From Candidatus Acetothermia bacterium (GTDB taxonomy: Bacteria > Bipolaricaulota > Bipolaricaulia > RBG-16-55-9 > DRXL01), in assembly GCA_016179105.1 (NCBI GenBank), contig JACOSB010000120.1, positions 489 to 64,488 on the forward strand: DNA of 64,000 nucleotides, given 5' to 3'. The translations under genes and the position numbers were made by a program. Positions 4,746-26,900 of the stretch are shown here, piece after piece. Each line of letters opens with the position of its first letter. The first letter of the stretch is position 1. Under the pieces are notes generated by a model that had not been told where the DNA came from, did not search any database, and was given only the letters and a program-made list of their open reading frames with translations.

Positions 4746-4978
4746 AGCCATCTTAAATTTTTACACTAGGCTGCCAGAAGTGGGGATGAAACGCTTCGTA
4801 GAAAGCAAGCCGGTTATCCCATAAGCAACAGTTCAGATCAAGCCGGGACGAACTCTATTTTGAGCTTGGCATTCAAGACCTGAGCAATGTTGCAATCTCT
4901 CTTCTCATCTGATATGCTCTCTACCAATAATATTAGCCTTGAGAAATATATTTTGCCAAAGCCATAAAACGAGCCCAA

Positions 4979-6268: not shown

Positions 6269-6337
6269 CTCAGCGATTGATTGTTCGGGACGATCGCCAC
6301 CGGCTATAATACAACCATATCTTCCGGGGGATAGAGA

Positions 6338-6763: not shown

Positions 6764-6813
6764 AAGACCATCGGCTGAAAGGCAAAATGGTTTTCTCGAA
6801 GGAGGCACCGGTT

Positions 6814-9126: not shown

Positions 9127-12100
9127 CTATAACTTCTGTTCAAGTGCGTACTCGATCGCTTGCTCCAGCGTCATCGCGCGGCCTTCGGCCCAAGCCGCAT
9201 CCGATGCTTTTTCACTTAGCCGAGAACGAGCTGCTGATACACGGTGCTCGTAGCCCGCGCGCTCTGCCGGGGTCAAGGGTGCACGAACCGCTTCTCGCAA
9301 CGCTTCAGCCTCTCCGAATAACGTGAGCGCGCGCTCTGGCTGTCCTCGAGCGCTGGCGACAGCAGCCAATCCCTCTAACGAATAGATAAGACCCTGCTTA
9401 CTTCCTACTTCTCGGAATAAAGCCAAACTTTGCTCATGGAATGATCGCGCGGCTGTATAATCCCCTTGAGCACACGCCACGAGCCCCAAATTGTCTATGA
9501 CTAACGCTATGCCGGACTTGTTTCCTACTTCACGGTGCAGGGCCAGACTTTCCTGCAGCCGAGCGCGCGCTGTCTCGTAGTCACCCTGGTATAAAGCTGT
9601 ACTCCCTAGGTTATTCAACATGACGGCAATCCCTCGATTGTCTCGCAACTCGTGCTTGATGGCGAGACTCTCTTCGTACAGAGAACGCGCGGTGGCATAG
9701 TCTCCTTGAGCATCGGCCACTTGCCCCAAGTTACTGAGCAGATTCGCAATCCTCTCCTTGTCTCCTAATTGGCGGAAGAGCTGCAAGCTATGCTCCAGGA
9801 GCTCTCGCGCTTTCGCATAATCTCCTTGGTAATGGGCAATCATTCCCAAACTGCTCAGCGTAAGCGTCATCGTATGTTGATCTCCTAGCTCTTGTTCGAT
9901 CGCCAAGCTTTCTTCAAAGAGAGGGCGTGCCGCTTCATAATCTCCCTGACTGTATACGATCAAGCCCAAGTTATGGAGAGCCGCCGCGAGGGTTTTGGGG
10001 TTGCCCAGCTCACGGACAAGAGTGAGGTTTTCTTGAAGCAGGGAGCGCGCCCTGACATAATCACCCTGCAATGAGGCCATAATGCCCACACAGGTAAGCG
10101 CTTTGGATTTTACGTCAGCCGGAACCGTAGTACTGGAGGCTGCCAGCATCGCTTCGGCCCATTGGCGTCCTTCGCTCAGCGGGCCATGCAGATGCCAAAA
10201 TCGCCAGACCGCTGCCATCATTCGTACCCCTTGTTCGACCAACCCTCCTTCAAGGGACCACGCCAGCGCTGCTCTCAGGTTGTTGCGCTCTTGCTCGAGT
10301 TTTTCGAGCCAGCGCTTCTGATTCGATCCCTTCAGCTCTGGCTCGGCCCGCTCAGCTAATTTCATAAACCATTCCAAGTGCTGAGAGCGAATTGCTTCTA
10401 GCTCTTGTGCGCCACGCAGTTTCTCTTGAGCATACTCTCGCACGGTCTCCAATAGCCGATAGCGCATCTCGGGGGCGCGTCGCTCAACGATCACCAAAGA
10501 TTTCTGGACCAAGCGACTGAGGAGGTCCAGGACTTTATGTTGCTCAACGTCCGATTCACCGTTGTAGGGGCGAGATAACCTCGCCCCTACACCCTGGGCA
10601 CACACGCCCTCCACTGCCTCCAACGTAAATCCTCCGGCAAAGACCGAAAGCCGACGTAGCAACGCCTTTTCATTCTCTGAGAGCAATTCCCAACTCCAGT
10701 CCATGGTGGCCCGCAGCGTCTGGTGCTGAGGCAGAGCCGCACGGCGATGACTCGCGAGCAACCCAAACCGATCTGCCAGCCGATCGGCGATCTGCGGGAT
10801 CGATAAGACATTGAGTCGTGCAGCCGCGAGTTCAATCGCCAAGGGCAACCCCTCGAGTTGCTGACAAATGCGAGCCACGTCCCGCGCGTTCTCCGGCGTG
10901 AGAGCAAATCCCGGCTGGCTCACCAGTGCTCGGGTGATAAAAAGACTCACCGCTTCATACTGCGCCAAGATCTTCGGAGCCGGCAGAGGCTCTCGATCGG
11001 GCATAGAGAGCGGCGGCACGGACCAGACCGTCTCTCCGTCTAGTCCCAAGGCCGCGCGGCTCGTAGCTAGAATCTGCAAGTTCGCGCAATTTTCTAAGAG
11101 TATTTTAATTAACTCCGCACACGCGTCTATCAGATGTTCACAATTATCTAAGACAAGGAGCGTCTGCTTGAGTCGCAGATGATCCGAGAGAATCCCTAAA
11201 GTAGGACGATCTGGATGCTCGCGCAGGCCGAGTGCCGAAGCGACGGTCTTCGCGACCAATGTCGGGTCGAACAAAACGCCCAGTTCGACCCACCAGATTC
11301 CGTCAGGAAAATCGGGAAGCACGTCGGTGGCCACTTGGAGAGCGAGTCGGGTTTTGCCGCTGCCCCCCATACCAGTCAGCATCAACAGTCGTGTCTGTAG
11401 GGGCGACCGGCCGGTCGCCCCATCCGTGAGCAAGCGTTTGACCTCAATGATCTCCCTCTCTCGCCCAACGAAACTGGTGAGCGCTGACGGGAGATTGTTG
11501 GGATAAACATATGGAAATGCGGCGACTTCGCCGTTAGAAATTTGCTCTTGCACGGCACGCAACTCGTGAGATGGCTCGGCTTGCAAATGCGTCTTCAGTG
11601 CCTCGACACACTGCTGGTACGTTTGCGAGGCAAGCGCCTGCGCTCCAGCGTGATAATGAAAGAGCATTTTTTGCCGAACGATACCTTCGTTCCAAGGCTG
11701 GAGCGCGAGCGCCCGCTCGCAGCACGCGATCGCACGATCGAGCTGGCGCAGGCGTGCATGAACGTCGGCAAGCCGAGCGAGTGCTTTTAGAAAAAGCTCA
11801 CGCCAACGTTCACGGGGAGCGAGCGTCCACTCTTCATAAAGGTCTTCAGTGAGAAAATCGCCCTGATAAAGTGCGACGGCTCGTTGATAGTTTTCTAGAG
11901 CTTGGAGCCAGCGCCCGGCTTGTTCGGCCTCGTGAGCATCCTGAAAAAATTTCTGAAATGCTTCGGTATCGAGCCAGCACGGAACGTCTTTACTAAAGCA
12001 ATAGCCTTGCAATTTGACGTGTAGGATGAATCGAGAATCTGTGCCCTTTTTGAGCTCCGGCTCCAGAAGGCGGCGCAGCTCGCTGATCCGTCCATGCAAG

Positions 12101-12312
12101 CTGAGCACGGCCTTTCCTAAATCCATCTCTGAAAAGAGCGCTTCGATCAACTGATCTTGCGTGAAGAAGCGACCGCGCTCCGTGAGCAATAGTTTTAGGA
12201 GTTGCTGGGTCTTGCGTTGAGGCCAAGCTTGCAGGGGCGACAGCGTTTTCCCGAGCTGCACTGTGAAGTGCCCGAGCATCGTGATTCGGAGCAAAAGCTC
12301 GTTCATGTTCAA
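9127..12312 (-). CDS. AfsR/SARP-family STAND transcriptional regulator (OmpR-type wHTH + BTAD + NB-ARC/AAA ATPase + TPR array), paralog A
   Basis: N-terminal MLGHFTVQLG wHTH and a BTAD region. Walker A GMGGSGKTRLALQVA. The C-terminus carries about 8 TPR-like repeats of pattern QGDYxxAxxLxEESLxxxRELGD. Transcribed divergently from the fibre-gene block. Confidence 0.8.
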   Translation of the reverse strand: MNMNELLLRITMLGHFTVQLGKTLSPLQAWPQRKTQQLLKLLLTERGRFFTQDQLIEALFSEMDLGKAVLSLHGRISELRRLLEPELKKGTDSRFILHVKLQGYCFSKDVPCWLDTEAFQKFFQDAHEAEQAGRWLQALENYQRAVALYQGDFLTEDLYEEWTLAPRERWRELFLKALARLADVHARLRQLDRAIACCERALALQPWNEGIVRQKMLFHYHAGAQALASQTYQQCVEALKTHLQAEPSHELRAVQEQISNGEVAAFPYVYPNNLPSALTSFVGREREIIEVKRLLTDGATGRSPLQTRLLMLTGMGGSGKTRLALQVATDVLPDFPDGIWWVELGVLFDPTLVAKTVASALGLREHPDRPTLGILSDHLRLKQTLLVLDNCEHLIDACAELIKILLENCANLQILATSRAALGLDGETVWSVPPLSMPDREPLPAPKILAQYEAVSLFITRALVSQPGFALTPENARDVARICQQLEGLPLAIELAAARLNVLSIPQIADRLADRFGLLASHRRAALPQHQTLRATMDWSWELLSENEKALLRRLSVFAGGFTLEAVEGVCAQGVGARLSRPYNGESDVEQHKVLDLLSRLVQKSLVIVERRAPEMRYRLLETVREYAQEKLRGAQELEAIRSQHLEWFMKLAERAEPELKGSNQKRWLEKLEQERNNLRAALAWSLEGGLVEQGVRMMAAVWRFWHLHGPLSEGRQWAEAMLAASSTTVPADVKSKALTCVGIMASLQGDYVRARSLLQENLTLVRELGNPKTLAAALHNLGLIVYSQGDYEAARPLFEESLAIEQELGDQHTMTLTLSSLGMIAHYQGDYAKARELLEHSLQLFRQLGDKERIANLLSNLGQVADAQGDYATARSLYEESLAIKHELRDNRGIAVMLNNLGSTALYQGDYETARARLQESLALHREVGNKSGIALVIDNLGLVACAQGDYTAARSFHEQSLALFREVGSKQGLIYSLEGLAAVASARGQPERALTLFGEAEALREAVRAPLTPAERAGYEHRVSAARSRLSEKASDAAWAEGRAMTLEQAIEYALEQKL
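10564..10590. repeat. GTAGGGGCGAG-loop-CTCGCCCCTAC palindromic element copy lying in-frame inside regulator A CDS
   Basis: gtaggggcgag ataac ctcgcccctac. In the gene frame it is translated as ...QGVGARLSRPYN... Confidence 0.6.
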
Positions 12313-12513
12313 TCCTATCGCTGCCCACTGATCTCGATCTTATCTAACAATCAAGGCGTTGCCAAATGGTTGAGTCAGTCCTCCCCTGTCCATCCAACGG
12401 GGAAGGCCGGCGCGAAGCGCAGGTGGGGCTTGGCCCCCATCCCTGGCCCTTCCCCCCGTAGTGACCCACAGAGGGGAAGGGAAACGATCTCCCAGTAGTC
12501 GTTTTTTTATCTT

Positions 12514-12532
12514 AGAAGGTCACCAGAAGGTC
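12514..12532 (+). promoter_or_regulatory. direct repeat AGAAGGTC-n3-AGAAGGTC (11-bp periodicity), candidate SARP-binding site / promoter of the fibre-gene operon
   Basis: agaaggtcaccagaaggtc lies about 20-60 bp upstream of the first ORF of the + strand block. SARPs bind direct repeats at 11-bp spacing overlapping the -35 region. Confidence 0.3.
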
Positions 12533-12551
12533 GCTCGATTACAGTTAGGCC

Positions 12552-12779
12552 ATGTCTGAGCAAACGATCACCCAGACAAAGGAGTGGAAGCCGATGAGCT
12601 TTATCGTGCGATTTCACCCGGCTCTGCCGGACGGTCAAGAGGACTGGCGCGGCCAGGTCGAGCATGTGCAGACGGGCGAGAAGCGTCCCTTTCGCGGAGC
12701 GCAGCAGCTTATGCAAATCATGGAAAGTTTCTTTGAGCTTGAAGCGAAAGAACTGAATACCGAGGAGGTAAGGCCATGA
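12552..12779 (+). CDS. small hypothetical protein (62-75 aa) translationally coupled to the first fibre gene
   Basis: Its stop overlaps the ATG at 12776 (ATGA). An internal start with an AAGGAG RBS exists at 12591. No recognisable domain. Confidence 0.4.
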   Translation: MSEQTITQTKEWKPMSFIVRFHPALPDGQEDWRGQVEHVQTGEKRPFRGAQQLMQIMESFFELEAKELNTEEVRP

Positions 12780-12805
12780 ACATTCGGAACTTAAAGGAGC
12801 CGGTG

Positions 12806-14326
12806 ATGAAGAATTTCAGAGTGCGGCAGATGTGGGTGGCGGTGTTGACAACCATCTTGATCGTGGCGGGATCAATCGGACTGGCCGAAGCCAAGGCGCT
12901 GTTCGTCGCGAACAACGGACTGGATATCGCTACGTGTGGAGCCATCGCGAGTCCCTGTCGCACGATTAGCAAGGCAATTGAGAACGCTGACCCTGGAGAT
13001 AAGATCATCGTCGGTCCGGGGCGTTATGGGGATCTCGACGGAGATGGAACATTCAATCCGATCCTGGGAGAAGAAAAGGCAGAAGTAGGCACGGGTTGCT
13101 TCTGCATGATCAAACTGGACAAGCCCTTGGACATCGAATCACGGGATGGGGCTGCTGCCACCGTGCTGGATGGCGGCAAAGAACTCAGCGCCGTGGTGGG
13201 CATCTTCGCCAGCAATGTCGTCTTTGGCAGGAAAAAGAAGGGCTTCACTCTCACCCACGGAAACCTCGGCATGTACATCAATTTTGGAACGAGTGGGGTA
13301 AGAGTGGAAGGCAACCTCGTCAGCGCCAATAGCACCCTTGGTTTCAGGATCCATGGCAACGGACATGTGCTTAGCAGCAATCTCGTCATCGCCGACGGCT
13401 TGACGGGTTTCGAACTTAACGACAGCGGACTTGTGCTAAACGGTAACCAAGCTATCGCCAATATGCTTGGTTTCGTCCTTAACGGGAGCGGACATCAATT
13501 GTCGGGCAACATAGCTAGCGCTAATAGCGACAAGGGTTTCGCGATAGGAGGCAATGGGGGGCATCACTTCAGCAGCAATGTCGCCAGTGCTAATGGGACT
13601 GGCTTCGATGTCGCTTTCGGCAATAGTAATGTGTTCACCGGCAACATTGTCCATGGGAATCGCTCCCATGGCTTTTTGATCGAGAGTGGCGCTGGACATA
13701 TGCTCACGGGCAACTCTATTCTGGGCAACGGAGGGTTCGGCATCGATCTAAGTTCTGGCGCCGGTGCCACCATCACCAAGAATAACATCTATGGCAATGG
13801 CGAGGGGCTGCGAGATGACTCGGGGGCAGAAACCAATGCAACCAACAACTTCTGGGGCGCCGCCACTGGGCCTGGGGACAATCCGGCAGACGGGCTCTTG
13901 ATCGGCCCGACCAGCAACACGATCTTCACCCCTTTTGCGACCAAGGAGTTCAAGATCAAGACGGTCACGCCTCTAGCAGAGCCGGGACTCATCATCCTGA
14001 CTGATCCTGAGCAGAGCGAGATTCCGCAAGCCCCTAGTCTGACACCCATTCAGTTCTTGAAAGCGCTGCAAACCAAAGAGGGGTGGCTCTTCCGCACGAC
14101 TGGGAATGTGAGCGCACTGCGGCTGGAGGTCATGGACTTATCCGGCAAGAAAATCTATGACAGTGGGCTCGTGAAGGGACAAACGCTCAGTTGGACTCGT
14201 GTCAACGCAAAAGACCAATCCGTCGCTAAGGGGGTGTATCTCTACCGGCTCACAGCACGCGATCGAGATGGCAATGAAATTCACAGTGAGCTACGCAAGC
14301 TCATCATCGAAAATTTCTTTGAGTAG
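12806..14326 (+). CDS. secreted right-handed parallel beta-helix (PbH1/NosD-like) repeat protein with C-terminal FlgD-Ig/T9SS-CTD-like domain
   Basis: Signal peptide MKNFRVRQMWVAVLTTILIVAGSIGLAEA. At least 9 tandem ~22-aa GNxxxxNxxxGF repeats. C-terminal ...GVYLYRLTARDRDGNEIHSELRKLII. An alternative start at 12776 is also RBS-supported. Confidence 0.7.
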   Translation: MKNFRVRQMWVAVLTTILIVAGSIGLAEAKALFVANNGLDIATCGAIASPCRTISKAIENADPGDKIIVGPGRYGDLDGDGTFNPILGEEKAEVGTGCFCMIKLDKPLDIESRDGAAATVLDGGKELSAVVGIFASNVVFGRKKKGFTLTHGNLGMYINFGTSGVRVEGNLVSANSTLGFRIHGNGHVLSSNLVIADGLTGFELNDSGLVLNGNQAIANMLGFVLNGSGHQLSGNIASANSDKGFAIGGNGGHHFSSNVASANGTGFDVAFGNSNVFTGNIVHGNRSHGFLIESGAGHMLTGNSILGNGGFGIDLSSGAGATITKNNIYGNGEGLRDDSGAETNATNNFWGAATGPGDNPADGLLIGPTSNTIFTPFATKEFKIKTVTPLAEPGLIILTDPEQSEIPQAPSLTPIQFLKALQTKEGWLFRTTGNVSALRLEVMDLSGKKIYDSGLVKGQTLSWTRVNAKDQSVAKGVYLYRLTARDRDGNEIHSELRKLIIENFFE

Positions 14327-14344
14327 GCGTATTCACTAAAACTC

Positions 14345-14364
14345 CCCGCTTTACTGAAAGCGGG
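14345..14364 (+). terminator. perfect 8-bp stem hairpin (cccgcttt-actg-aaagcggg) between fibre genes, possible attenuator/processing site
   Basis: Seen directly in the sequence. There is no U-tract, so probably not a strong intrinsic terminator. Confidence 0.25.
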
Positions 14365-14383
14365 CAATTCCTAAGGAGGAATC

Positions 14384-15163
14384 ATGAATCGTTTCTTAAC
14401 GTTAACGGCTGTGGCGTTCGTTGGCGTGGTGATTTGCGTTGGATCGGCTCAGGCTCAGAACACCATTGTGAAAGTCAATTTTCAATACGCGGTCAAGTTT
14501 GTCTGTGGCCAGAGTGCAGAAGACCATTTACAGGCAGTCAAGGGGATTTACACGACAGCGGTGAACGTGCACAATCCGGGTGTGTTTAACGCGGTCTTCG
14601 CTGAGAAAATAGCCATCGCGCGCCCTCAAGAAATAGCTGGACCCATTTCGAAATTCCGATTATCTCAATTGCCATCGGATGCCGCCTTCGAACTAACTTG
14701 CGAGGAGTTTTCCTCAGATACACAGACCAAATTTGTCACCGGTTTTCTGGTGATCGAAAGCCCTGTGGAACTGGATATCACAGCGGTTTACACCGCCCGA
14801 CCGAGTGATGGCGAGGTCAGCACGATCGACGTAGAAACCATCGCATCTCGTAAGGTGCGCCTCACACTATCGGTCGAGCCAGGGCCACAAGCGGACATCT
14901 CTCTGGTTAACAGCCACGGGCAGTTACACTTTAATGTGATGGGTTTGGAGTGGCAAGTTCAGTCCACAGCGTTGTCTGTCTTTGATTTACAAGGAAAGAT
15001 CGTCTACACGTCGGGCAACATCCAAGGCGCTGCACTAAACTGGAATTTCACTGCGACGAATGGACGAGCGGTGGCCAACGGTGTCTACCTGGCAGTGATT
15101 ACCGCCAGAGGCAAACTAGGTCAGCTGATCACTTCGACGCGAAAAATTGCAGTTTCTCGTTAA
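14384..15163 (+). CDS. secreted protein with C-terminal FlgD-Ig/T9SS-CTD-like beta-sandwich (GVYLAVITA motif)
   Basis: Good RBS (aaggagg). Signal peptide MNRFLTLTAVAFVGVVICVGSAQA. The C-terminal ~70 aa align with the Ig-like module of neighbouring genes. Confidence 0.6.
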   Translation: MNRFLTLTAVAFVGVVICVGSAQAQNTIVKVNFQYAVKFVCGQSAEDHLQAVKGIYTTAVNVHNPGVFNAVFAEKIAIARPQEIAGPISKFRLSQLPSDAAFELTCEEFSSDTQTKFVTGFLVIESPVELDITAVYTARPSDGEVSTIDVETIASRKVRLTLSVEPGPQADISLVNSHGQLHFNVMGLEWQVQSTALSVFDLQGKIVYTSGNIQGAALNWNFTATNGRAVANGVYLAVITARGKLGQLITSTRKIAVSR

Positions 15164-15221
15164 GCACACGGGTGAGCGTTGTGTCGAAAATAATACTTTA
15201 CTAGACGATAAGGAGGTCGCC

Positions 15222-17038
15222 ATGACGCATGTACGCGGAGTTGGTATCTGGCTGGCTGGGTTCGTCCTGGCACTCAGCAGTATGGCCACAACAAGTTGGG
15301 CGGCAGGCCAAGGACCATCCTTCAGCGTCCTTGTCGAGGAGCAAGCTTCAGGGTATCGCTTCTCGGTTCAAGCAGAGGACGTCACTTCAGTTCGGGTCGC
15401 CATCTTGCGCCTGGATGGTCGACGGGTCTTCCAGAGCGATTGGATCGTGGGTCCTACAGTCACCTGGCCGCTCGCAACATCATCCAATCAGACTCCCGCC
15501 CGCGGAGTCTATCTGTACGCGGTGAGCGCTCGCGATCAACACGACCGTGAGCAACGCAAACTGGGCAAGTTGGTCGTTTCCTTCGGAGCGGAGTCCTCAC
15601 TGAGCCTGCCTAGCTTGGACCAGTTAGCAGGGAGTCAGCCTTCGGCCCTTCCCAGCGGAGTGAAGTGGAAAGAGCTTTTAGGCAAAGACAGTTTGGACAA
15701 TTTCCGCATCCAGCGCCAGCCTGGCAAAGGGCAAGCTTTCCAAAACTTGCTCACGCTGGACAATGCCGGGAATTTGAGCGTGGCGCAACTCTGCTTGAGT
15801 GAAGTCTGCCTCGCGAGCTGGCCTAGTGGGGGAGGAGGCACTTTCACGTTAGCAGATGGGTCCGTCACGTTAGCCAAGCTGGCGAACCAGGACTGCGGGG
15901 CGGGCAACGCGATCCGGGGCTGGACCGGTGGAGTGTGCTGAACTGTGCCAGTCTTGGGGGCGGAGGGACACCCAGTGGCTGGGTCGATGACGGTACAGTC
16001 GTACGGTTGGCAGACGCAACAGACAAGGTCGGCATCGGGACGACGGGACCACAAAACTTACTAACTATCGGTCCAAATCCATCTGCTGCCTCCAATGCGA
16101 ATGAATTATTACAGTTGGCAAAGAACGAAGACGCATATATGACGATACGAGATGGAACTGCTACTGCTCTTTTGGGCACTACTAGCGGTCTTCCCTTCGT
16201 TGGTAGCCAATCGAATCATGACTTTACCATTCGCACGAACAATGCAGAGAAGGTCAGGATTACAACAAGCGGCAACGTCGGCATCGGGACTATTAGCCCC
16301 AATACGCGGTTGGAAGTGCAAGGCCCGGATACAAATCTTGACACGAAAGCCTTCAAGGTTAGCAACTCAATTGGCTTTGCCGGGTTGATCGTTTGGGACG
16401 ACGGAACTGTGCAAATCGGGACCCTTGTCGACAACCCGAAGACACAACATGCTTGCCTGACCCTCGGACTTTATTTCGCCACGTGCAGTTCCGCCGCCGA
16501 GTATGTTCCCACTGTTGATGAAGGACAGGGTTATCCCATCGCGGGTGATTTAGTCAGTATCGCGCCCACCCTCAAGAATCCGTATAGCGATGATCACGGT
16601 CCCTTCGTGGTCGCCAAGACGAACAAGCCCTGCGACGAGAATCTAATCGGATTTATTCTCGACCCCAAGTTGGGTGCTGACGGCAAGAAACTCAACGAGC
16701 ACTATATGCCGCTCGGCATCTACGGCTACTTCCCTGCGAAAGTCACGATGGAGAATGGGCCTATTAAGCGCGGCGATCCGATCACGTCCAGTTCCAAACC
16801 CGGCTACGGGATGAAAGCGACGCAAGCCTGCAAGATCATCGGCTATGCGCTCGAAGACGCGGACAAAGAAGGTACGATTCAAGTCTTCGCGCATCTGAGC
16901 GAGAATGCCGCACCGGAAGTGACGGCGCTGCGTGCGAAAGTGAGCGAATTAGAGCAAGCAAGAGCTCAGGAGAACGAGGAGTTCCGCAAGAGAATCGAGA
17001 CGCTAGAGAAGATCGTAGCAAGGCTCACGGCTAAGTGA
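15222..17038 (+). pseudogene. fibre-family protein (type I N-terminal Ig-like domain + IGTTxP repeats + family-A C-terminal domain + coiled coil) interrupted by a frameshift at ~15931-15941
   Basis: ORFs 15147..15941 and 15935..17038 are collinear with the intact paralog 17933..19756. The paralog has GWTGGVLNCISVGGGG; here GWTGGVC* is followed by LNCASLGGGG in another frame. Nucleotide alignment shows 2 extra nt (gtgtGCtgaactg vs gtgttgaactg). Confidence 0.6.
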
Positions 17039-17065
17039 TGTGAATGGCTTCGGGGCTTGGTGGGA

Positions 17066-17518
17066 TCATTGCGACTCGGCAAGCCCCCACATGCCCAGCC
17101 ACTGTATCCGTTTGGCTAGCGGCGCGTGACTCAAAGCTTTCACCAGCCGTTGGTCCGCCGTGATGAAGACCGCATCGCGCTGCTCAGCCAATGCCACATA
17201 CAAAGCATCGTAGACGCTGCGCTGGTAAACCCGAGCAATCTCCCAGGCGCTCTCCACAAGGGAAAGCGACGCATACAGCTGAATCGGAAAGGAAGTACGA
17301 ATATGACCAAGAACCTGCTGCACCTCCGACGGTGCAAGCTCCCCGAGCCTGTGCTTCTTCCAAAGGATATTGCCCAACTCGGCCACAATCAGATCTGGCG
17401 CGAGCAGACGGCTGTCCTCCTCGGCAGCGGCTTCCAAAAATTGTTCGGCTTGGCCGGAGAGAACTTCCGGCAGATACCATTTGATCGCCACGCTGGCATC
17501 CACGACGAAGCGCTTCAT
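17066..17518 (-). CDS. vapC: PIN-domain toxin VapC
   Basis: MKRFVVDASVAIKWYLPE... carries the conserved acidic residues of a PIN domain. Overlaps the upstream antitoxin stop by 4 nt. Confidence 0.8.
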   Translation of the reverse strand: MKRFVVDASVAIKWYLPEVLSGQAEQFLEAAAEEDSRLLAPDLIVAELGNILWKKHRLGELAPSEVQQVLGHIRTSFPIQLYASLSLVESAWEIARVYQRSVYDALYVALAEQRDAVFITADQRLVKALSHAPLAKRIQWLGMWGLAESQ

Positions 17519-17751
17519 CGGCGGCGGTCCTCGCGCAGCAAGTGGACGCTGTCGCTGAAGGTGCGGCCGGAGCGGGTGAGCTTGCGGCGGAGTCGGCGGG
17601 TGCCGGCGAGCGCCTCGTGGGCCGAATGTTTTACGGAATCTTCCAAGATCGCTCTCAACTCTTGTTGGAGCGAGCGATGCTGTCGGATGGCACGTTCTTT
17701 GAGAGTCTTCAGCACCTTGTCGGGTACATCACGTATTAAGATATTGGGCAC
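17515..17751 (-). CDS. vapB: VapB-type antitoxin (ribbon-helix-helix/FitA-like), probable GTG start
   Basis: N-terminus (M)PNILIRDVPDKVLKTLKERAIRQHRSLQQELRAIL is a typical RHH antitoxin. AAAGGA RBS sits 8 nt upstream of the GTG. The longer ATG-initiated ORF (to 17808) is also possible. Confidence 0.6.
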   Translation of the reverse strand: MPNILIRDVPDKVLKTLKERAIRQHRSLQQELRAILEDSVKHSAHEALAGTRRLRRKLTRSGRTFSDSVHLLREDRRR

Positions 17752-17769
17752 AGTAGGATTCCTTTCTGA

Positions 17770-17786
17770 TGCTATCACAATGATAG
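17770..17786. promoter_or_regulatory. perfect inverted repeat GCTATCA-caa-TGATAGC immediately upstream of vapB, candidate autoregulatory operator
   Basis: Seen directly in the sequence. TA operons are typically autorepressed via palindromes at the promoter. Confidence 0.4.
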
Positions 17787-17806
17787 CAAAGGCTTCTATG
17801 GGGAGC

Positions 17807-17913
17807 AAAGAACCAATCCATCGCCAGCGGAGTTTATCTGTATCGACTCACCCCGCGCGATCGAGACGGCAATGAAACTCAGAGCGAGCTACGCAAGCTC
17901 ATCATCTTAAAGT
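17807..17913 (+). pseudogene. 3' remnant (last ~35 codons) of a beta-helix/Ig-like paralog of gene 12806..14326, truncated by the vapBC insertion
   Basis: Nucleotide and protein match to 14208..14326. Remnant KNQSIASGVYLYRLTPRDRDGNETQSELRKLIILK* versus KDQSVAKGVYLYRLTARDRDGNEIHSELRKLIIENFFE*. Confidence 0.6.
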
Positions 17914-17932
17914 AAACCAAAGGAGGTACACC

Positions 17933-19756
17933 ATGGCGCGTGTACGCAGAATCAGCATCTTATTGGCTGGGTTCGTCTTGGCACTCAGTAGTGTGAGCAC
18001 GACAACCGGGGCAGCAGATCCAGCAGCATCCTTCAATGTCCTCGTCGAGGAGCAAGCCTCCGAGTATCGCTTCTCGGTTCAAGCAGAGGGCGTAACTTCA
18101 GTGCGGGTCGCTATCTTGCGCTTGGATGGTCGACAGGTCTTTCAGAGCGATTGGGTCGCGGGTCAGACGGTTATCTGGTCACTTGCTACATCATCAAACC
18201 AGACTCCTACCAATGGAGTCTATCTGTACGCGGTGAGCGCTCGCGATCATCAGGGCCGTGAGCAACGCAAACTGGGTAAGCTGGTCGTTTTCTTCGGAGC
18301 GGAGTCCTCACTGAGCCTGCCTAGCTTGGACCAGTTAGCAGGGAGTCAGCCTTCGGCGCTTCCCAGCGGAGTGAAATGGCAAGAGAAATTGGGCAAAGAT
18401 AGCGTGGATAATTTTCGGATTCAGCGTCAGCCTGGCAAAGGACAGTCTTTCCAGAATTTGCTCATGCTGGACAATGCCGGAAATTTGAGCGTGGCGCAAC
18501 TCTGCTTGAGTGGAGTCTGCTTCGCCAGCTGGCCGAGTGGCGGAGGAGGAACCTTCACGTTAGCAGATGGGTCCGTCACTTTAGCCAAGCTGGCGAACCA
18601 GGACTGCGGAGCGGGCAATGCGATCCGGGGCTGGACCGGTGGCGTGTTGAACTGCATCAGTGTCGGAGGTGGGGGAGGAGTGCCCAGCGGCTGGGTCGAT
18701 GATGGCACGGTCGTACGGTTGGCTAATGCGACGGAGAGTGTCGGAATCGGCACAAACATACCTACGTCACTCTTGCACTTGCGCAAGGACGTGCCGGCGG
18801 GCCTCGGTCCAACGCTGACCTTGTACAATGGCGGCGGCAGCGGAGGTGCGGCGGACTCCATAGACTTTTTCACCTACTCGTCCCCCACCCCAACTTCGCC
18901 CACGGCTCGGATCATGAGCATTGATGACGGCAGCTTCAGTAATCACCTGGCATTTTTCACCAGGATTCCAGGGGACAATGGCAATGCGCTGTTGGAGCGG
19001 ATGCGGATCGCTTCGAACGGCGATGTCGGCATTACTGGCAACGTCGGCATCGGGACTACTAGCTCCCCTGGTCTGCGCCTGGCAGTCGTCGGCAACATCG
19101 GCAACACTAGTATCTTGGGACTGAATGTCTATAACGAAGGCTTTGTACAAATTGGCACCCTTTATGGCTCCTCCACCTTGCACGCATGTTATAGCACCAT
19201 CTTGCCTTTCGCCTTCGCCGCGTGCAGCTCGGCCGCCGAGTATGTGCCATCCATTGACAACGGTGCGGGTTTTCCCGAAACCGCCGACCTTGTAAGCATC
19301 GCGCCCGCCGTCACTAATCCTTACGGCGACACGCACGGCCCTTTCACCGTCCAGAAATCCACCATGTCGTGCGATCCGAACCTACTCGGCTTTATCGTGA
19401 AACCCGAATCGGGCGCCAACGGCAAGAAACTGAACGACCACTATCTCCCGCTCGCCATCTATGGCTACTTCCCGGCCAAAGTCACGCTGGAGAATGGGCC
19501 CATCAAGCGCGGGGATCCGATCACGTCTAGTTCCAAGCCAGGCTACGGAATGAAAGCAACGCAAGCCTGCAAGGTCATCGGCTATGCGCTCGAAGACGCA
19601 GACAAAGAAGGCACGATCCAAGTCTTCGCGCATCTGAGCGAGAATGCTGCGCCGGAAGTTGCAGCACTGCGAGCGCAGGTGCAAGAGTTGAAACAACAAT
19701 TACAACAAGTGCTCAGCCAGATAGAGACAATGAAAACCAAGGAGGGATCACGATGA
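17933..19756 (+). CDS. secreted fibre-family protein, type I N-terminal FlgD-Ig-like domain, Gly-rich/IGTTxP repeats, family-A C-terminal domain (CSSAAEYVP...KRGDPITSSSKPGYGMKATQACK) and terminal coiled coil
   Basis: RBS aaaggagg. Signal peptide. Intact counterpart of the frameshifted gene, with which it shares >85% nt identity in long stretches. Confidence 0.75.
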   Translation: MARVRRISILLAGFVLALSSVSTTTGAADPAASFNVLVEEQASEYRFSVQAEGVTSVRVAILRLDGRQVFQSDWVAGQTVIWSLATSSNQTPTNGVYLYAVSARDHQGREQRKLGKLVVFFGAESSLSLPSLDQLAGSQPSALPSGVKWQEKLGKDSVDNFRIQRQPGKGQSFQNLLMLDNAGNLSVAQLCLSGVCFASWPSGGGGTFTLADGSVTLAKLANQDCGAGNAIRGWTGGVLNCISVGGGGGVPSGWVDDGTVVRLANATESVGIGTNIPTSLLHLRKDVPAGLGPTLTLYNGGGSGGAADSIDFFTYSSPTPTSPTARIMSIDDGSFSNHLAFFTRIPGDNGNALLERMRIASNGDVGITGNVGIGTTSSPGLRLAVVGNIGNTSILGLNVYNEGFVQIGTLYGSSTLHACYSTILPFAFAACSSAAEYVPSIDNGAGFPETADLVSIAPAVTNPYGDTHGPFTVQKSTMSCDPNLLGFIVKPESGANGKKLNDHYLPLAIYGYFPAKVTLENGPIKRGDPITSSSKPGYGMKATQACKVIGYALEDADKEGTIQVFAHLSENAAPEVAALRAQVQELKQQLQQVLSQIETMKTKEGSR

Positions 19757-21894
19757 GATTCAAGAATCGACGTTGGCTCTGGGTCGTGCTGTTGCTGCTC
19801 ATGGCGGTGAGAGCAGCGGCTGGCCAAGCTGCCTCTTTCCAAGTGCAAGTCGAGCAGCAAGCCTTGGGCATCCGCTTCACCGTGCAAGACGTGAACGTCA
19901 CTTCCATGCGAGTCGAAGTCGCGGGCTTAGACGGTAGAACAATCTTTGCGAGCGGATGGAAATCAGATCGGTCGGTAACCTGGCCCATGGTCACTCCGCA
20001 AGAGCGATCAGCAGCGAACGGAGTCTATCTGTACGAGATCGTATTACGCGATCACGAGGGACGTGAGTATCGCAAACTTGGCAAGCTAGCGCTCGTGCAG
20101 GGACAAGAGCCGGCATTCAGTATGTCTACAGTGGGCGAACTCGCGGGAACAGGACCTGCAGTGGCGCAGTTTCCCCTGACCGCGGGAACGAGTTGGAGTC
20201 AACGTTTGGGTATTGATCGGTCGGACACATACCGGATTCAACGTCGTCCACCTAGAGTGACTGGAGGGCCTCCAACGACTTTTGAAAACCTGCTCCAACT
20301 CGAGGCCGATGGAAAGCTTCGCATCAAAGCACTGTGTTTGGGAACAGTCTTTGCGCCGGTGACCCCTCAGAACCCGGACAATCTTTCTAACGAAGGAGAC
20401 TGTCGCAGCAGCTGGTCCGGCGTGACTGGTGGAGGTACGACGAACGGATGGACGGATGATGGCGCGATCGTGCGCTTGGCTAACGCAACAGACAAGGTCG
20501 GCATCGGGACGACGAATCCGACTGAACTCTTAACCGTAGCCGGCAATATCGATGCGACCGGACAGAAGAGCAAGATACGATTTCAGTATGATACGTTGGC
20601 CGATCTTCCTTCTGCGGCGACCTATCATGGGATGTTCGCCCATGTGCACGCGACGGGCAAAGCCTATTTCGCCCATGCCGGGCAGTGGGTTGCGTTGGCG
20701 AATGAAGGCAGCAGCGGAGGCGCCTCTGCATGGTCGCTCTCTGGAAATAGTGGAACGAATCCCAGTACAAATTTCTTGGGAACAACCAGCAATACTGCGC
20801 TCGTCTTCCGTACAAATAACTTGGAACGAATGCGTCTCAGTGAAAATGGTAGTATCGTCATCGGAACGAACACTCCTTGCGTAGGCCAGAGGTTGCAGGT
20901 TACCAAGTTCGCTTCAGGGCTCGGCTGCCCAGCCCCAGATCTTCTTGACGTAGCTATCTTCGCGGAGAACAAAGACGGGCGTGCTGTCGTCGGTCAAAGC
21001 GCCGATGATGCAGGCATCGAAGGCATAAGCAATAGCAGCGCTGGTGTCTCCGGGCTCAGCAAAAATGGCGCGGGAGTGAAGGGCGTCAGCGGAGAGGCCA
21101 TCGACATAGGTGAGCGTGAATCAGGCGTGGGTGTAGTGGGTATTAGTGTCTCCGAGCTAGGAGCTGGTGTCCTGGGCCTCAATCTCAATGGTGGCATAGG
21201 TGTACAAGGCGAGAGTGGAAAGAATTTTGGCGTTGCTGGCAAGAGCGAAGAGAAGAGTGGGGTGCTTGGCATCAGCACAATGGAGGCGGGGGTAGCAGGT
21301 GTAAGTACTAAGAATTACGGCATTGCCGGTGGCAGTATCGAGAGCACGGGCGTGTATGGGGAAAGTCAGAACGGGACATATATATTTGAGGGTTTTGATG
21401 GAAATACCAACAACCGACGTTTTGCCGTGGAGCGGGCTACGGGAAATGTCAAAGCGTATGGCACCTTCACCGGCGGCGGCGTGGACTATGCCGATATGCT
21501 TCCCGTCACGGGCAAGCTATCCGACTATGAGCCGGGCGACGTGCTTGTCATCAGCCTGGATGGAAAGTTAACGAAATCATGGCAGCCGTATTCAACGGCG
21601 CTTGCCGGAGTCTATTCTACGAAACCTGCTTTTGTGGGTGATTCCCGCGGACTCACAGAAGATAGCCGAGCGATGGATGAAAATCTGGTTCCCGTGGCGC
21701 TCGTCGGACTCGTGCCGGTGAAAGTGAGCGCCGAGAACGGTCCGATTCATCCCGGAGATTTGCTCACAACTGCGAGTATCCCCGGACACGCGATGAAAGC
21801 CACGGACCCGAAAATTGGGACAATTCTTGGCAAGGCAATGCAGTCTCTAGAAAAAGGCACCGGCGTGATCAATGTGCTGGTGACCTTGCGCTAA
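19753..21894 (+). CDS. secreted fibre-family protein, type II N-terminal Ig-like domain, GVxG-rich repeat region, family-B C-terminal domain (YEPGDVLV...PGDLLTTASIPGHAMKAT...VLVTLR)
   Basis: Start overlaps the previous stop (ATGA). Signal peptide MRFKNRRWLWVVLLLLMAVRAAAG. The N-terminal 230 aa are paralogous to gene 21921..23804. Confidence 0.75.
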   Translation: MRFKNRRWLWVVLLLLMAVRAAAGQAASFQVQVEQQALGIRFTVQDVNVTSMRVEVAGLDGRTIFASGWKSDRSVTWPMVTPQERSAANGVYLYEIVLRDHEGREYRKLGKLALVQGQEPAFSMSTVGELAGTGPAVAQFPLTAGTSWSQRLGIDRSDTYRIQRRPPRVTGGPPTTFENLLQLEADGKLRIKALCLGTVFAPVTPQNPDNLSNEGDCRSSWSGVTGGGTTNGWTDDGAIVRLANATDKVGIGTTNPTELLTVAGNIDATGQKSKIRFQYDTLADLPSAATYHGMFAHVHATGKAYFAHAGQWVALANEGSSGGASAWSLSGNSGTNPSTNFLGTTSNTALVFRTNNLERMRLSENGSIVIGTNTPCVGQRLQVTKFASGLGCPAPDLLDVAIFAENKDGRAVVGQSADDAGIEGISNSSAGVSGLSKNGAGVKGVSGEAIDIGERESGVGVVGISVSELGAGVLGLNLNGGIGVQGESGKNFGVAGKSEEKSGVLGISTMEAGVAGVSTKNYGIAGGSIESTGVYGESQNGTYIFEGFDGNTNNRRFAVERATGNVKAYGTFTGGGVDYADMLPVTGKLSDYEPGDVLVISLDGKLTKSWQPYSTALAGVYSTKPAFVGDSRGLTEDSRAMDENLVPVALVGLVPVKVSAENGPIHPGDLLTTASIPGHAMKATDPKIGTILGKAMQSLEKGTGVINVLVTLR

Positions 21895-21920
21895 CTCAAA
21901 GTGAGAAACAGGAGGAAACA

Positions 21921-23804
21921 ATGAATCAATTCACTCATAGAGTCGTCATGGCGTTGGCAACATTCGCTCTGGCGATCGCCACGGGCAGTGTTGGAACAGT
22001 CTTGACAGCCAAGGCAGCGGAAGCGATTTCTTCTTCTTCAGTTCTGATCGAGCAACAAGCCGCGGGCGTTCGCTTCTCAGTGCAAGACGAGAGCACCGTT
22101 GCGTTGCGGCTGGAAGTCTTGAGCTTGGATGGAAGAAGAATCTTCCAGAGCGAATGGCGACCAGACAAGACCGTGGTATGGTCAGCAGCTCTCATCACTG
22201 GACAAACCGTCGCAAATGGAGTTTATCTCTACGCAATCAGCGTGCGCGACCGGGAGGGACGCGAGCAAAGAAAGCTGGGCAAGTTGGTTCTGGTGCAGGG
22301 ACTGGAGCCGCGGCTGAGCATCCCAGCAGTGAGCGAGTTGGTCACAACAGAACCCGCAGCGGCACAGTTCCCCCTTACTGCGGGAACGAGTTGGAGCCAA
22401 CGATTGGGTATTGACCGGTCAGACACGTATCGGATTCTGCGCCGACCAGCGCGTGTACCCGGTGGACCTGTCACTAGCTTCGAGCAATTGCTCCAGCTCG
22501 GAGCCAATGGAAGGCTGCACATTACAGAACTATGTTTGGGTACAGTCTTTGCTCCGTTCACTGCTCAGAACCCGGACAATCTTTCTAACGGAGGAGACTG
22601 TCGCAGCAGCTGGTCGGGTGTGACGGGTGGAGGTACGTCGAACGGATGGACGGATGATGGTGCGATCGTGCGACTGGCTACCGCGAGCGATAAGGTCGGC
22701 ATTGGCACGACCACGCCAGCACAAGCACTGGAAGTAAACGGGATTGCTTCTTTGGGAGCCCCTGGAGGAGTCTATGGATACTTGTTTGCAGCTCCCTCGC
22801 CAGGACCCTACCCAACCCTCGGGTTTAACACCTATGGGGCACCTTTCTATCTGGCAGGAGTTGCGGGATATGGTGGTATCCTCCAGTTTCAGGATGGGGA
22901 TGGAAAGCTCATTTACTATACCGGCTCGAACGTGGCTGCAGGAGCAGCACATGTCAATACCCCACGATTCGCGATAGATAAGGACGGCAACGTCGGAGTC
23001 GGCACCACCACCCCGACCGCGAAACTTTCGGTTCAGACCGGGACAGGCTTTTATGGCTTCATCCACACCGATGGCGCCATTGTTGTAGGTTCGTATGTGG
23101 GGGGCAGCGCGTCAGGTGCCGTCGGCGGGTGGCTTGGCACCAAGTCGAATCACCAACTTCACTTCTTCACCAACAACGGCCAGCCCAGCATGACGATCGA
23201 CACCGCTGGCAGAGTGGGTATCGGGACGTTCAGCCCGAGTGCCACGCTGGATGTCAACGGGGGCATCCAGGCTAATAGCTTGACGGCGCCGGCGGGTCTG
23301 TTCCTGAACGCCTCGACCGGCCGCATCGCCCTGCGGACGACGACTGGGGGGCTGTTTGCGGAGCGGATGACGATCCTGGACAACGGCAATGTCGGCATCG
23401 GCACCACCAGTCCCACAAACCCCTTACAGATGGGCAGTGGTGCATTCGTCTCCGCTGGAGGCATCTGGACCAATGCGTCAGACCGTAACCTGAAGGAGCA
23501 CTTCACTCCGGTGGACAGTTACACCGTGCTGAAGACACTGGCTGCGCTCCCCATCACCGCTTGGAATTACAAGACGGAAGGAGCTTCCATCCAGCATATT
23601 GGCCCGGTAGCGCAGGACTTCTATGCCGCGTTCAAGTTGGGACAGGACAACAAGCACATCAGCACGATTGACGCGAACGGAGTGGCACTGCTCTCGATCC
23701 AGGCGCTCTATGAGCTGAGCTTGGAGAAAGACAAACAGATCGAGGATTTGCAGCAGCGTATCGAGAAGCTGGAGAAGCTTGTGGAGATGTTGACAAAGAA
23801 ATAA
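21921..23804 (+). CDS. secreted fibre-family protein with tail-fibre-like IGTTxP beta-helical repeats and C-terminal Peptidase_S74 intramolecular chaperone (auto-processing) domain
   Basis: C-terminus SDRNLKEHFTPVDSYTVLKTLAALPITAWNYKTEGASIQHIGPVAQDFYAAF...ELSLEKDKQIEDLQQRIEKLEKL matches the chaperone-of-endosialidase/S74 consensus (SDxxxK...IGxxAQ...coiled coil). N-terminal Ig-like GVYLY domain and signal peptide are present. Confidence 0.75.
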   Translation: MNQFTHRVVMALATFALAIATGSVGTVLTAKAAEAISSSSVLIEQQAAGVRFSVQDESTVALRLEVLSLDGRRIFQSEWRPDKTVVWSAALITGQTVANGVYLYAISVRDREGREQRKLGKLVLVQGLEPRLSIPAVSELVTTEPAAAQFPLTAGTSWSQRLGIDRSDTYRILRRPARVPGGPVTSFEQLLQLGANGRLHITELCLGTVFAPFTAQNPDNLSNGGDCRSSWSGVTGGGTSNGWTDDGAIVRLATASDKVGIGTTTPAQALEVNGIASLGAPGGVYGYLFAAPSPGPYPTLGFNTYGAPFYLAGVAGYGGILQFQDGDGKLIYYTGSNVAAGAAHVNTPRFAIDKDGNVGVGTTTPTAKLSVQTGTGFYGFIHTDGAIVVGSYVGGSASGAVGGWLGTKSNHQLHFFTNNGQPSMTIDTAGRVGIGTFSPSATLDVNGGIQANSLTAPAGLFLNASTGRIALRTTTGGLFAERMTILDNGNVGIGTTSPTNPLQMGSGAFVSAGGIWTNASDRNLKEHFTPVDSYTVLKTLAALPITAWNYKTEGASIQHIGPVAQDFYAAFKLGQDNKHISTIDANGVALLSIQALYELSLEKDKQIEDLQQRIEKLEKLVEMLTKK

Positions 23805-23870
23805 GTGAGGCTTCAGAGAACAAGAGCTGAGATGAGAAGGGCCGGGCAGCGTTCGCTTGGCCCTGTTTGC

Positions 23871-23898
23871 GTAGGGGCGAGGCATGCCTCGCCCCTAC
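23871..23898. repeat. GTAGGGGCGAGG-catg-CCTCGCCCCTAC palindromic element (bidirectional terminator-like) between convergent genes
   Basis: Perfect 12-bp stem hairpin; member of the family also at 10564, 31571, 32798, 40419 and 51377. Confidence 0.6.
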
Positions 23899-23906
23899 GG
23901 GACCAA

Positions 23907-26900
23907 TCATTCTGTGCTCGTGTCTAACGCATACTCGATCGCCTGCTCGAGCGTCAGTGATTGACCTTGGGTCCAGGCAGCTGCAAAAACTTTCTCCTCA
24001 AGCTTCTCACGGATTGTAGCTACAGTGCGATCAAAAGCAGCGCGATTGGTCGGCGGCAAAGAAGCACGCATGGCCCCGCGCAGAGCCGCGACGGCTCCGC
24101 AAAGATGAGCAGCGCGCACAAGCTGACCTTGGGCGAGCGAAACCACTCCCGTCCCTTCGAGTAAGAACGCGATGTTCCATTTATCTCGCAACTCCCGTTG
24201 CAAGAGTAGTCCCTCTTCATAGAGCGCATGAGCGGATGCATAATCACTTTGTTTTAGGGCAACACTGCCCAGATTATTGAGAGAGTTGGCGAGGCCCGGC
24301 TTGTCTCCTAGCTCACGACGTAAAGCCAGACTTTTTTCATAGAGCGTTCGCGCTGTTTGGTAGTCCCCTTGATTCTCTGCTACACTCCCCAAGTTGTTGA
24401 ACAAATAAGAGATGGCTTGTTTGTTCCCCAACTTTGTGTTGATCTCGAGGCTCTCTTCATAGAATGCTTTGGCTTGCGTATACTCACCCTGGGCTCGCGC
24501 GATGAGCCCTAAATTGTTGAGCAAGATAGCAATGCCGGCGGCGTCTCCTAATTTACGAGAGAGATTCAAGCCCTCCTCAGAGAGGGAGCGCGCCCGTGTA
24601 TACTCACCCTGCTTCCAGGCGATCGACCCCAAATTCTGAAGAGTTTTTGCCATGTCTCTCTCGCCTCCCAGACCTCGAAAGATCGCTAGACTTTCTTCGT
24701 GATAAGAACGTGCTGTGAGATAATCTCCTTGTCCTTCAGCCAGAGTGCCGGCCGCGTTGAGCGCCTTGGCACTCGTGATAGTCCTCTTGAGACTCCCGGC
24801 CTGTGCAAGGACAGAAGCCACTTGTGATCGCCCTTCTGTGAGATAGCCGCGAACAAGCCAGAAAGCACTGAGTGCGGTTACCATGCGCAACCCAGCTTCC
24901 GTTTTTCTTCTATCTTTGGCATATTCGAGTGCACTGCGCAGATTGTCTTGCTCTTGCTCCAATCGCTCCAGCCAGCTGGATTGAGCGGGCCCCTGCAGTT
25001 CGGACTCTGCTTTTTCTGCCAGAGCAAGGAACCAATCAAGATGGCGCTCGCGCAAGACCGATTCTTCTTTGGAATCAAGAAGTTTCTCCCGACCGAACTG
25101 GCGCACGGTCTCTAGCAGGCGATACCGTGTCTCTCCGTCTCGCTGATCCACAAGCACTAGCGACTTGTCTATGAGGTGAGTCAGTAAATCCAAAATTTCT
25201 GTAAGGGCGATTCGTGAATCGCCCTTACGAAGATCATCTCTTGCACAGATCGTCTCTACGGCCTCCAACGTAAACCCGCCCGCGAAGATAGACAACCTGC
25301 GCAGCAATGTTTGCTCAGCGGATGAGAGCAGATCGTAGCTCCAGTCCATCGCAGCCTGTAGAGTTTGTTGTCGCGGAAGCGCCGTCCGGCTGCCGCTCGT
25401 GAGCAACCGGAAGCGATCGTCCAGCCGCGCCGCGATCTCTGTGACAGACAAAACTTTCACGCGTGCCGCCGCGAGCTCGATGGCCAAGGGCAAGCCATCC
25501 AGCTTCTGGCAGATCTGCATCACCGCAGGGGCATTTTGTAGGTTCAATCCAAATTCCGGTTGACTAGAGAGTGCCCGCTCGACGAATAAGCTTATAGCTT
25601 CGTATTGTTTTAAAATCTTCAAAGGCAAGGAATCGTGAGCGTCGGGCTGCACGAGCGGAGGCACTTGCCAAACCGTCTCTCCTGCGATGCCCAGCGCCTC
25701 ACGGCTCGTGGCCAAGACCTGAAGATCTGGGCAGGTGTGCAATAGAGTCTCTGTCATGTGCGCACAGGCACTGATCAAGTGCTCACAATTGTCTAGAACC
25801 AGGAGCATTTGTTTGGATTTTAGATAGTCTGAGAGTGCGTCTGTCAACGAACATTGCTGTGTCTCGCGCACTCCCAAGGCAGACGCGATGGCTTGCGGGA
25901 CGAGCTTTGGGTCGGAGATGGATGCCAATTCTACCCACCAGACTCCATCCGAGTAGTCTTTCACCATACTTGCGGAAACTTGCAACGCGAGGCGTGTCTT
26001 GCCGCTGCCCCCGGCTCCAGTGAGAGTAAGTAATCTCGTCGTGTTGAGTAACCATTTCACTTTGACAATCTCGCGCTCGCGCCCGATGAAGCTGGTCACA
26101 GAGCTGGGCAGATTGTGCCGTGCCGGACTCGCGGGCGGCGGGTAGCCTTGGCTGGAACGCTCTCCACGCACAATCTGCTCGTGCAATGTGCACGTCTCGG
26201 GCGACGGTTTTGCACTCAAGTGCTCTTCCATTACTTTGGCACACTCGGCATAAACTTGCAGTGCTTCGCTGTGCTGCCCTGCGAGCGAGTGATAGAGCAT
26301 CTGCTGGCGATAGACGCTCTCGCGTGTGAGCTCTTGTTTCAAGATTTTTCCGCATTGTTCGAGTGCTTGTGGATACTGCCCCAGACGCGCATGGCATTCG
26401 GCGCATTGCGAAAGCGCGGTCAGATAGAGCTCTCGCCAATGTTGACGCGGGCTGAGCGTCCACTCTTCATAAAGGTCTTCGGCCAAGAAATCACCCTGAT
26501 AGAGATCGAGAGCTTGGCGATATGTGTCCAATGCTTCCGGCCAGCGCCCGGCTCGTTCTGAGGCTTGGGCAGTCTCCATCTTCTTTTGGAATTCTTCGGT
26601 GTCGAGCCAACAGGAAGAATCTTTGCTAAAAGAATATCCACCCTGGCGCTTACTCACGATGTAGTGTGAGTCCAAGCTCTTGTCAAGATTAGGCTCTAAT
26701 GCGTGGCGCAGTTCTCCGATGCGTCCGTAGAGATTCTTCGCGGCTTTCGCGGGCTCAAGGTCGGGAAAGAGTGCTTCGATCAGTTGGTCCGGGCTGAAGA
26801 TTTTTCCCCGGTCGGTGAGCAGGATTTTCAAGAGCGACAACGTCTTGTGGCGCCCCCAGGCTTGGGCAGGGACGAGCGCATCCTCACGCCAGACTTCAAA

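Follow-up and report, generated by a model that had tools for sequence, protein, structure and literature searches.

Gene content around the vapBC pair

In the 64,000-nt stretch of DNA analysed here (the window), a toxin-antitoxin (TA) gene pair on the minus strand lies between two fibre genes, fibre A and fibre B, and is separated from the latter by the remnant of a further gene. The features that concern us are the following, with window coordinates and, in brackets, the basis for each.

14207..14308, plus strand: 3′ part of the resident intact beta-helix/Ig gene 12806..14326 that matches the relic described below (blastn)
15222..17038, plus strand: fibre A, a paralog of fibre B that is disrupted by a 2-nt insertion (about 15931..15932) and flanks the TA pair on the left (ORF, alignment)
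17066..17518, minus strand: vapC, PIN-domain toxin of 150 aa (Pfam PIN, PDB match, acidic residues)
17515..17751, minus strand: vapB, FitA-like ribbon-helix-helix (RHH) antitoxin of 78 aa with a GTG start (Pfam, N-termini of homologues)
17760..17765, minus strand: probable vapB ribosome-binding site (RBS) AAAGGA (inferred from sequence)
17770..17788, no strand assigned: probable VapB/VapBC operator TGCTATCA-N3-TGATAGCA, two 8-mers with an 11-bp period (sequence and homologous loci)
17780..17785, minus strand: TATCAT, a probable -10 box within the first operator 8-mer, extended by an upstream TG (17787..17788) (homologues)
17803..17808, minus strand: weak -35-like hexamer TTGCTC, 17 nt upstream of the -10 box and spanning the start of the relic's homology (inferred)
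17805..17915, plus strand: relic 3′ end (stub) of a beta-helix/Ig-family gene, 36 codons plus stop, 111 nt (blastn, dN/dS)
17921..17926, plus strand: fibre B RBS AGGAGG, in the 17-nt spacer after the stop codon of the stub (collinear with the L044 junction)
17933..19756, plus strand: fibre B, a secreted fibre-like protein of 607 aa (ORF)

The initial annotation had described the minus-strand genes as a vapB-vapC pair, with a PIN toxin and an RHH antitoxin starting at GTG, and the Pfam matches agree. The vapC product exceeds the gathering score of the PIN model (PF01850; E 2.8e-14), and its nearest solved structures by sequence in the PDB are PAE0151 (E 1.6e-11) and then PAE2754 (E 1.6e-4), two archaeal VapC PIN proteins from Pyrobaculum aerophilum; the alignment with them covers residues 4–127, acidic residues included. 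When VapC was aligned with 20 homologues from GTDB genomes, residues D7, E47, D104 and D122 were invariant in all sequences (21 of 21), and they also align with PAE0151. No similarity was detected to the cognate RHH antitoxin of PAE0151/PAE2754. The vapB product matches the full FitA-like_RHH model of Pfam (E 1.1e-13) and Arc (E 6.5e-5), as well as, under the model cut-off, the NCBIfam model for VapB antitoxins (E 7.3e-6).

Translation of vapB from the GTG at 17751 yields the N-terminus (M)PNILIRDVP..., which equals that of homologues starting with ATG; the GTG start is thus supported by homologues that begin MPNILIRDV. An alternative TTG start at 17808, taken by the mechanical ORF call, would make the gene run through the operator and is backed by no homologue. 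The stop codon of vapB and the start codon of vapC share 4 nt (ATGA, 17515..17518), with the antitoxin gene first in a single operon. As far as can be judged from sequence, the pair is an intact, ordinary vapBC/FitAB-like type II TA module, and apparently a functional one. By analogy with the family, free VapC would act as a Mg2+-dependent PIN endoribonuclease that arrests translation, and its active site would be covered by the arginine-rich C-terminal tail of VapB. The closest homologues of the pair are from the same phylum (69% in locus L011 and 65% in locus L015), the rest being distributed across many phyla at 32–51%, and the window holds no second copy of the pair.

On the other side of the pair, the stop codon of fibre A (17038) is 27 nt from that of vapC (17066). 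Compared with fibre B and with the orthologue in the related locus L041, the insertion in fibre A leads to a stop codon at 15939..15941, leaving the overlapping ORFs 15147..15941 and 15935..17038; since the sister strain (L001) has the same lesion, fibre A is a pseudogene or a split gene, and not the product of a sequencing error. Fibre B matches NCBI protein HYR54_12690 at 100% identity and has orthologues at 78% (L041/L010) and 72% (L043); a scan of genome contigs with fibre B gave no match, and a metagenome scan retrieved a single contig of 2.3 kb.

A conserved 8-mer motif at the vapB promoter

The palindrome previously reported at the vapB promoter is present and perfect, with arms of 8 nt instead of 7 (TGCTATCA-caa-TGATAGCA, 17770..17788). 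Perfect palindromes with 8-nt arms occur at about 17 sites in the window versus about 6.5 in shuffled sequences, and the chance of one of them landing in this stretch of approximately 55 nt is about 0.015; since such palindromes are commoner in the window than in the shuffles, position alone is modest evidence for an operator. What makes the operator reading convincing is that homologous promoters conserve the same 8-mers. Among the 27 homologous loci with a recognisable vapB, approximately 20 have one or two TGNTANCA 8-mers situated 25–46 nt upstream of the vapB start, usually in the form of TGCTATCA twice with an 11-bp period, and the pair of 8-mers over TATCAT is kept in Bipolaricaulota, Armatimonadota, Nitrospirota, Deltaproteobacteria, Elusimicrobia and others. 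The 8-mers form a direct repeat in L011 and L015, the closest relatives (both from Bipolaricaulota/Acetothermia), and are inverted in the window and in L022; each of them is nearly palindromic by itself, so that either orientation should suit a symmetric RHH dimer.

Many of the homologous loci show TTGAC(A/G/C), a 17-nt spacer and TATCAT at the equivalent place. At the -35 position, the window has TTGCTC, a poor hexamer (3/6), and the corresponding hexamers are TTGACC in L011 and TTGATC in L015. A consensus scan predicted no promoter in 16900..18050, and its sole terminator-like site in this interval lies within vapC, with about as many expected by chance; likewise, Rfam gave no match in 12000..24000. 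The palindrome at 17770..17788 is very probably the VapB operator, and the overlap of its motif with the -10 box of the operon corresponds to a classic autorepression layout. Following the model of the family, VapB dimers would bind the two TGNTANCA 8-mers via their ribbon-helix-helix N-termini and, when bound over the -10 box, would repress transcription of their own operon. The pair of TGCTATCA 8-mers over the -10 box, conserved across phyla, provides the FitA-like RHH family with an operator prediction that can be used and tested.

The organization of the module is like that of FitAB from Neisseria gonorrhoeae, which also has a FitA-like RHH antitoxin gene followed by, and overlapping with, a PIN toxin gene, as well as an operator made of 8-bp half-sites at the operon's own promoter, although the host here is an uncultured Acetothermia/Bipolaricaulota bacterium. 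We take the FitAB half-site (TGCTATCA/TGATAGCA) to be the same 8-mer as that found at 17770..17788. The FitAB half-sites are spaced by 12–14 nt, whereas those in the window are separated by 3 nt (11-bp period), a shorter spacer. Overall similarity between the proteins is low, and a phmmer search against PDB sequences retrieved neither FitA nor FitB at E <= 1. According to the model for FitAB, four FitA-FitB heterodimers assemble on operator DNA, with FitA binding DNA through its RHH fold and FitB stabilising the complex without contacting DNA (PMC3920265, PMC3378870).

The beta-helix gene relic upstream of fibre B

Beyond the vapB promoter, positions 17805..17906 align without gaps to 14207..14308, with 84 of 102 nt identical (82.4%; blastn E 7e-25). 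The similarity to the 3′ end of gene 12806..14326, proposed in the initial annotation, is thus real and well above chance, with a correction to its limits: the frame of the stub, which encodes AKNQSIASGVYLYRLTPRDRDGNETQSELRKLIILK*, has its stop codon at 17913..17915 and not at 17911..17913. This frame is open only from 17788, being bounded upstream by stop codons within the palindrome, and contains no in-frame ATG, GTG or TTG before the stop. Similarity ends at about 17805, within the -35-like hexamer of vapB; four genes of the family stay mutually similar further upstream. A MAFFT alignment hinted at homology upstream of 17805 with a 27-nt gap, which was unsupported once these four family genes were aligned. 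The stub covers the last strands of a C-terminal T9SS-CTD/FlgD-Ig-like domain (GVYLYRL...ELRKLII), and its family is that of beta-helix proteins with this domain at the C-terminus; the fibre proteins carry it as well, at their N-terminus. The intact genes of the window show matches to CHU_C, Por_Secre_tail and FlgD_ig, all under the curated cut-offs.

Sequence variation between the stub and the resident gene was mostly synonymous, with 13 of the 18 differences at third codon positions (p 0.0009) and a dN/dS of 0.14 (Nei-Gojobori), indicating that purifying selection acted on both sequences during nearly all of their divergence. The stub is about equidistant from the resident gene (82% identity), its orthologue in L041 (79%) and the paralog in L044 (80%). 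Additionally, its deduced product ends in IILK*, versus IIENFFE* in the resident gene; the ending ...KLIILK* is common to the stub and to the proteins P0004 and P0009, and the stub peptide is nearest to the C-terminus of P0004, an unrelated metagenomic family member (85% identical). The synonymous divergence, the absence of a start codon and the ...KLIILK* ending point to the relic of a separate paralog and not to a recent copy; the stub had been considered a second copy of the beta-helix/Ig gene, which holds for the family and not for a copy of 12806..14326, given its equidistance from the L041 and L044 genes. According to these comparisons, the stub is the relic of a distinct, formerly functional beta-helix paralog that was truncated recently relative to its divergence, and what is left is a non-coding truncated pseudogene.

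An intact counterpart of this arrangement exists on another contig (L044) of the sister MAG GCA_016201315.1, in which an intact beta-helix gene of 351 aa lies 18 nt before a fibre gene of 598 aa. The end of the L044 gene, its stop codon, the spacer, the RBS (AGGAGGTACACCATG) and the first fibre codons are collinear with the stub, the 17-nt spacer and fibre B, and both the RBS and the fibre start are near-identical to those of the window. In L045, a beta-helix gene likewise directly precedes a fibre gene. These two layouts indicate that the beta-helix-then-fibre architecture postulated earlier does exist, and the intact layout at the paralogous locus L044 and at L045 bears out the idea that a beta-helix gene once preceded the fibre gene 17933..19756. 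The lost gene and fibre B evidently once formed a tight gene pair.

The resident beta-helix gene 12806..14326 codes for 506 aa in the window versus a 384-aa call in L001 (5644..6798), with 94% over the shared part; in blastn, the L001 gene gave overlapping repeat alignments, consistent with variation in the number of beta-helix repeats; the L001 gene may also have been called too short. L044 contains an ORF of 129 aa (5015..5789) whose similarity to the beta-helix genes is confined to their C-terminal part (70% nucleotide identity to window 13931..14290) and which adjoins a 118-aa fragment of a TPR regulator; both look like further gene relics. In several loci, a small ORF of 61–78 aa, without a recorded Pfam match, is found directly upstream of the beta-helix gene (12552..12779 in the window, 2610..2795 in L041 and 1174..1407 in L045), and it also precedes P0004.

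Limits of the cassette and origin of the truncation

The TA unit occupies at most 17039..17804 and comprises the promoter, vapB, vapC and almost nothing else; it is a clean minimal cassette that extends from the -35 box to 27 nt beyond the vapC stop, and the break of the neighbouring gene coincides with its edge. No convincing terminal repeats or target-site duplications were found at the cassette ends, and a direct repeat flanking it (17036..17051 and 17781..17796) coincides in 12 of 16 nt and was judged to be due to chance. Neither the ORFs of at least 50 aa in 10000..24000 nor, by Pfam, the nine locus proteins scanned include a recombinase, and the GC content of the cassette does not shift with respect to its flanks. 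Its surroundings show no framework of an integron, transposon or prophage.

The sister strain GCA_016201315.1 (L001) is 97.8% identical to the window over 6.6 kb. Locus L041, and the shorter L010, contain a regulator gene, the small ORF, the beta-helix gene, a 259-aa Ig gene and the orthologue of fibre B (82% nucleotide identity); L041 is collinear with the window but lacks 15170..17915 (fibre A, the TA pair and the stub), so that its Ig gene runs straight to the fibre B orthologue. The absence of the whole segment from L041/L010 indicates that the frameshifted fibre A, the TA pair and the stub are dispensable, and it fits the initial description of the locus as a dynamic array. As with the gene relics found beside chromosomal TA modules, the TA pair of the window sits in a strain-variable segment, between a frameshifted fibre A and the stub. 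The relic, the lesion in fibre A and the segment missing in a relative show a quick turnover of these fibre arrays. A strain with an intact second beta-helix gene at this site was sought among the related contigs, which contained neither such an allele nor an empty site: L001 to L004 have the same stub, and all five TA-bearing contigs hold it in identical form. Sites diagnostic for fibre A or B read mostly as B in the L041 fibre (37 B vs 14 A), beginning with its first bases. These sites do not support an origin of the L041 layout by deletion through recombination between fibres A and B; L041 is no simple A x B recombinant, and the segment may have been gained here or lost there.

Comparison of the window with L001 also showed that 142 of their 148 differences over 6.6 kb are within the first approximately 600 nt of fibres A and B (15200..15800 and 18000..18600), the part corresponding to the N-terminal Ig-like domain. 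At 34 sites the window A sequence equals that of L001 B and vice versa, which suggests exchange between paralogs, or mixing during MAG assembly. In L010/L041, the intergenic region that follows the Ig gene and precedes the fibre B orthologue (L010 44..201) has a 136-nt insert, absent from the window, with nested inverted repeats cctcaccctcgg...ccgaaggcaaggtgagg around ccctctccc...gggagaggg; this insert could represent a terminator or a small repeat element.

The surroundings of related TA modules and fibre genes are varied. In L011 the TA pair is divergently adjacent to a fibre-family gene whose product is 35% identical to fibre B in the N-terminal Ig region and 40% in the C-terminal region, with a match to Peptidase_G2, and in L015 the TA pair adjoins hypF. 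Around the fibre orthologue of L043 lie two TA pairs of other types, MazE/PIN_3 and UPF0175/DUF3368, together with a Y1 transposase and a fragment of an integrase. In this small sample, TA modules and mobile-element debris recur around fibre genes. The adjacency in L011 and the two other TA pairs of L043 hint at a vapBC lineage specifically tied to the fibre arrays of Bipolaricaulota, which would stabilise duplicated cassettes or couple expression of fibre B to the VapB/VapC ratio, in the latter case via the operator/promoter that now abuts the fibre B leader. With three or four loci and fibre genes that are multicopy, the adjacency is likely coincidental, and we regard such a link as improbable.

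Our preferred reading, to which we assign a probability of about 0.7, is that the operon is an intact vapBC/FitAB module and that TA insertion plus deletion removed the body of the former beta-helix partner of fibre B. This partner evolved as a functional gene until fairly recently and then lost its body, the break falling exactly on the outer edge of the vapB promoter. In the simplest history, all but its 3′ end would have been removed when the TA cassette inserted illegitimately and a deletion accompanied the insertion. Because the breakpoint coincides with the edge of the cassette, TA insertion is the simplest cause of the truncation, and the cassette itself would then have displaced the beta-helix gene. 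TA modules can behave as selfish stabilisers of dispensable DNA. The one described here would be a selfish passenger in a region of a surface-fibre array that is variable and in decay, and may incidentally protect this segment from loss.

Alternatively, the block formed by the frameshifted fibre A, vapBC and the stub could have been built elsewhere and have entered as a unit by recombination via the conserved fibre 5′ regions, in which case the TA pair never displaced a gene at this site. This course of events is unlikely, yet it has to be reckoned with: the extra DNA with respect to L041 is exactly one unit, from fibre RBS to fibre RBS (15210 to 17920), fibres A and B are 84–92% identical over their 5′ 830 nt, with mosaic exchange between strains, and the closest vapBC homologue (L011, 69%) is also by a fibre-family gene, so that the adjacency could predate the arrangement. 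However, no donor locus came to light, the B-type 5′ end of the L041 fibre leaves no supporting recombination scar, and a truncation of the stub beside the TA promoter would still be needed somewhere, which changes the place and not the nature of the event. A further proposal, that the 3′ end of 12806..14326 was recently copied to an ectopic site to give the stub, by partial duplication or as a gene-conversion tract, agrees with this gene being the best nucleotide match within the window; nevertheless, the divergence of 18%, mainly synonymous and with a dN/dS of 0.14, the IILK* ending common to P0004 and P0009 and not to the resident gene, and a similarity to the L041 and L044 genes about as high as that to the resident gene make it very improbable. 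The least credible explanation of all is that the similarity of the stub is fortuitous, against which stands the E value of 7e-25, or that the arrangement is a metagenome assembly chimera. The window does come from a MAG, and repeat-rich fibre paralogs invite misassembly, but the end of fibre A, the TA pair, the stub and the start of fibre B recur with 100% identity in L001 to L004, which comprise a second MAG and three independent SRA-run assemblies whose contigs span both junctions. Being identical in four other contigs, the arrangement is not an assembly artefact of the window contig.

The locus is a tidy example, from an uncultured phylum, of TA modules sitting amid, and perhaps causing, the decay of genes at variable surface-protein loci; its significance beyond annotation is slight, as unsurprising genome wear.

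Two other features were observed in these loci. In L011, the UDP-glucose dehydrogenase gene (4485..7247), two genes from the closest vapBC homologue, is split by an intein with a LAGLIDADG homing endonuclease. The window contains two regulator-like ORFs of about 1,000 aa on the minus strand (9127..12312 and 23907..26978), immediately upstream and divergent from the fibre arrays that start at 12806 and 27050, respectively. Their orthologues in L001 and L008 match BTAD, NB-ARC/AAA and TPR models of Pfam, and the pairing of regulator and fibre array recurs in L001, L008 and L041.
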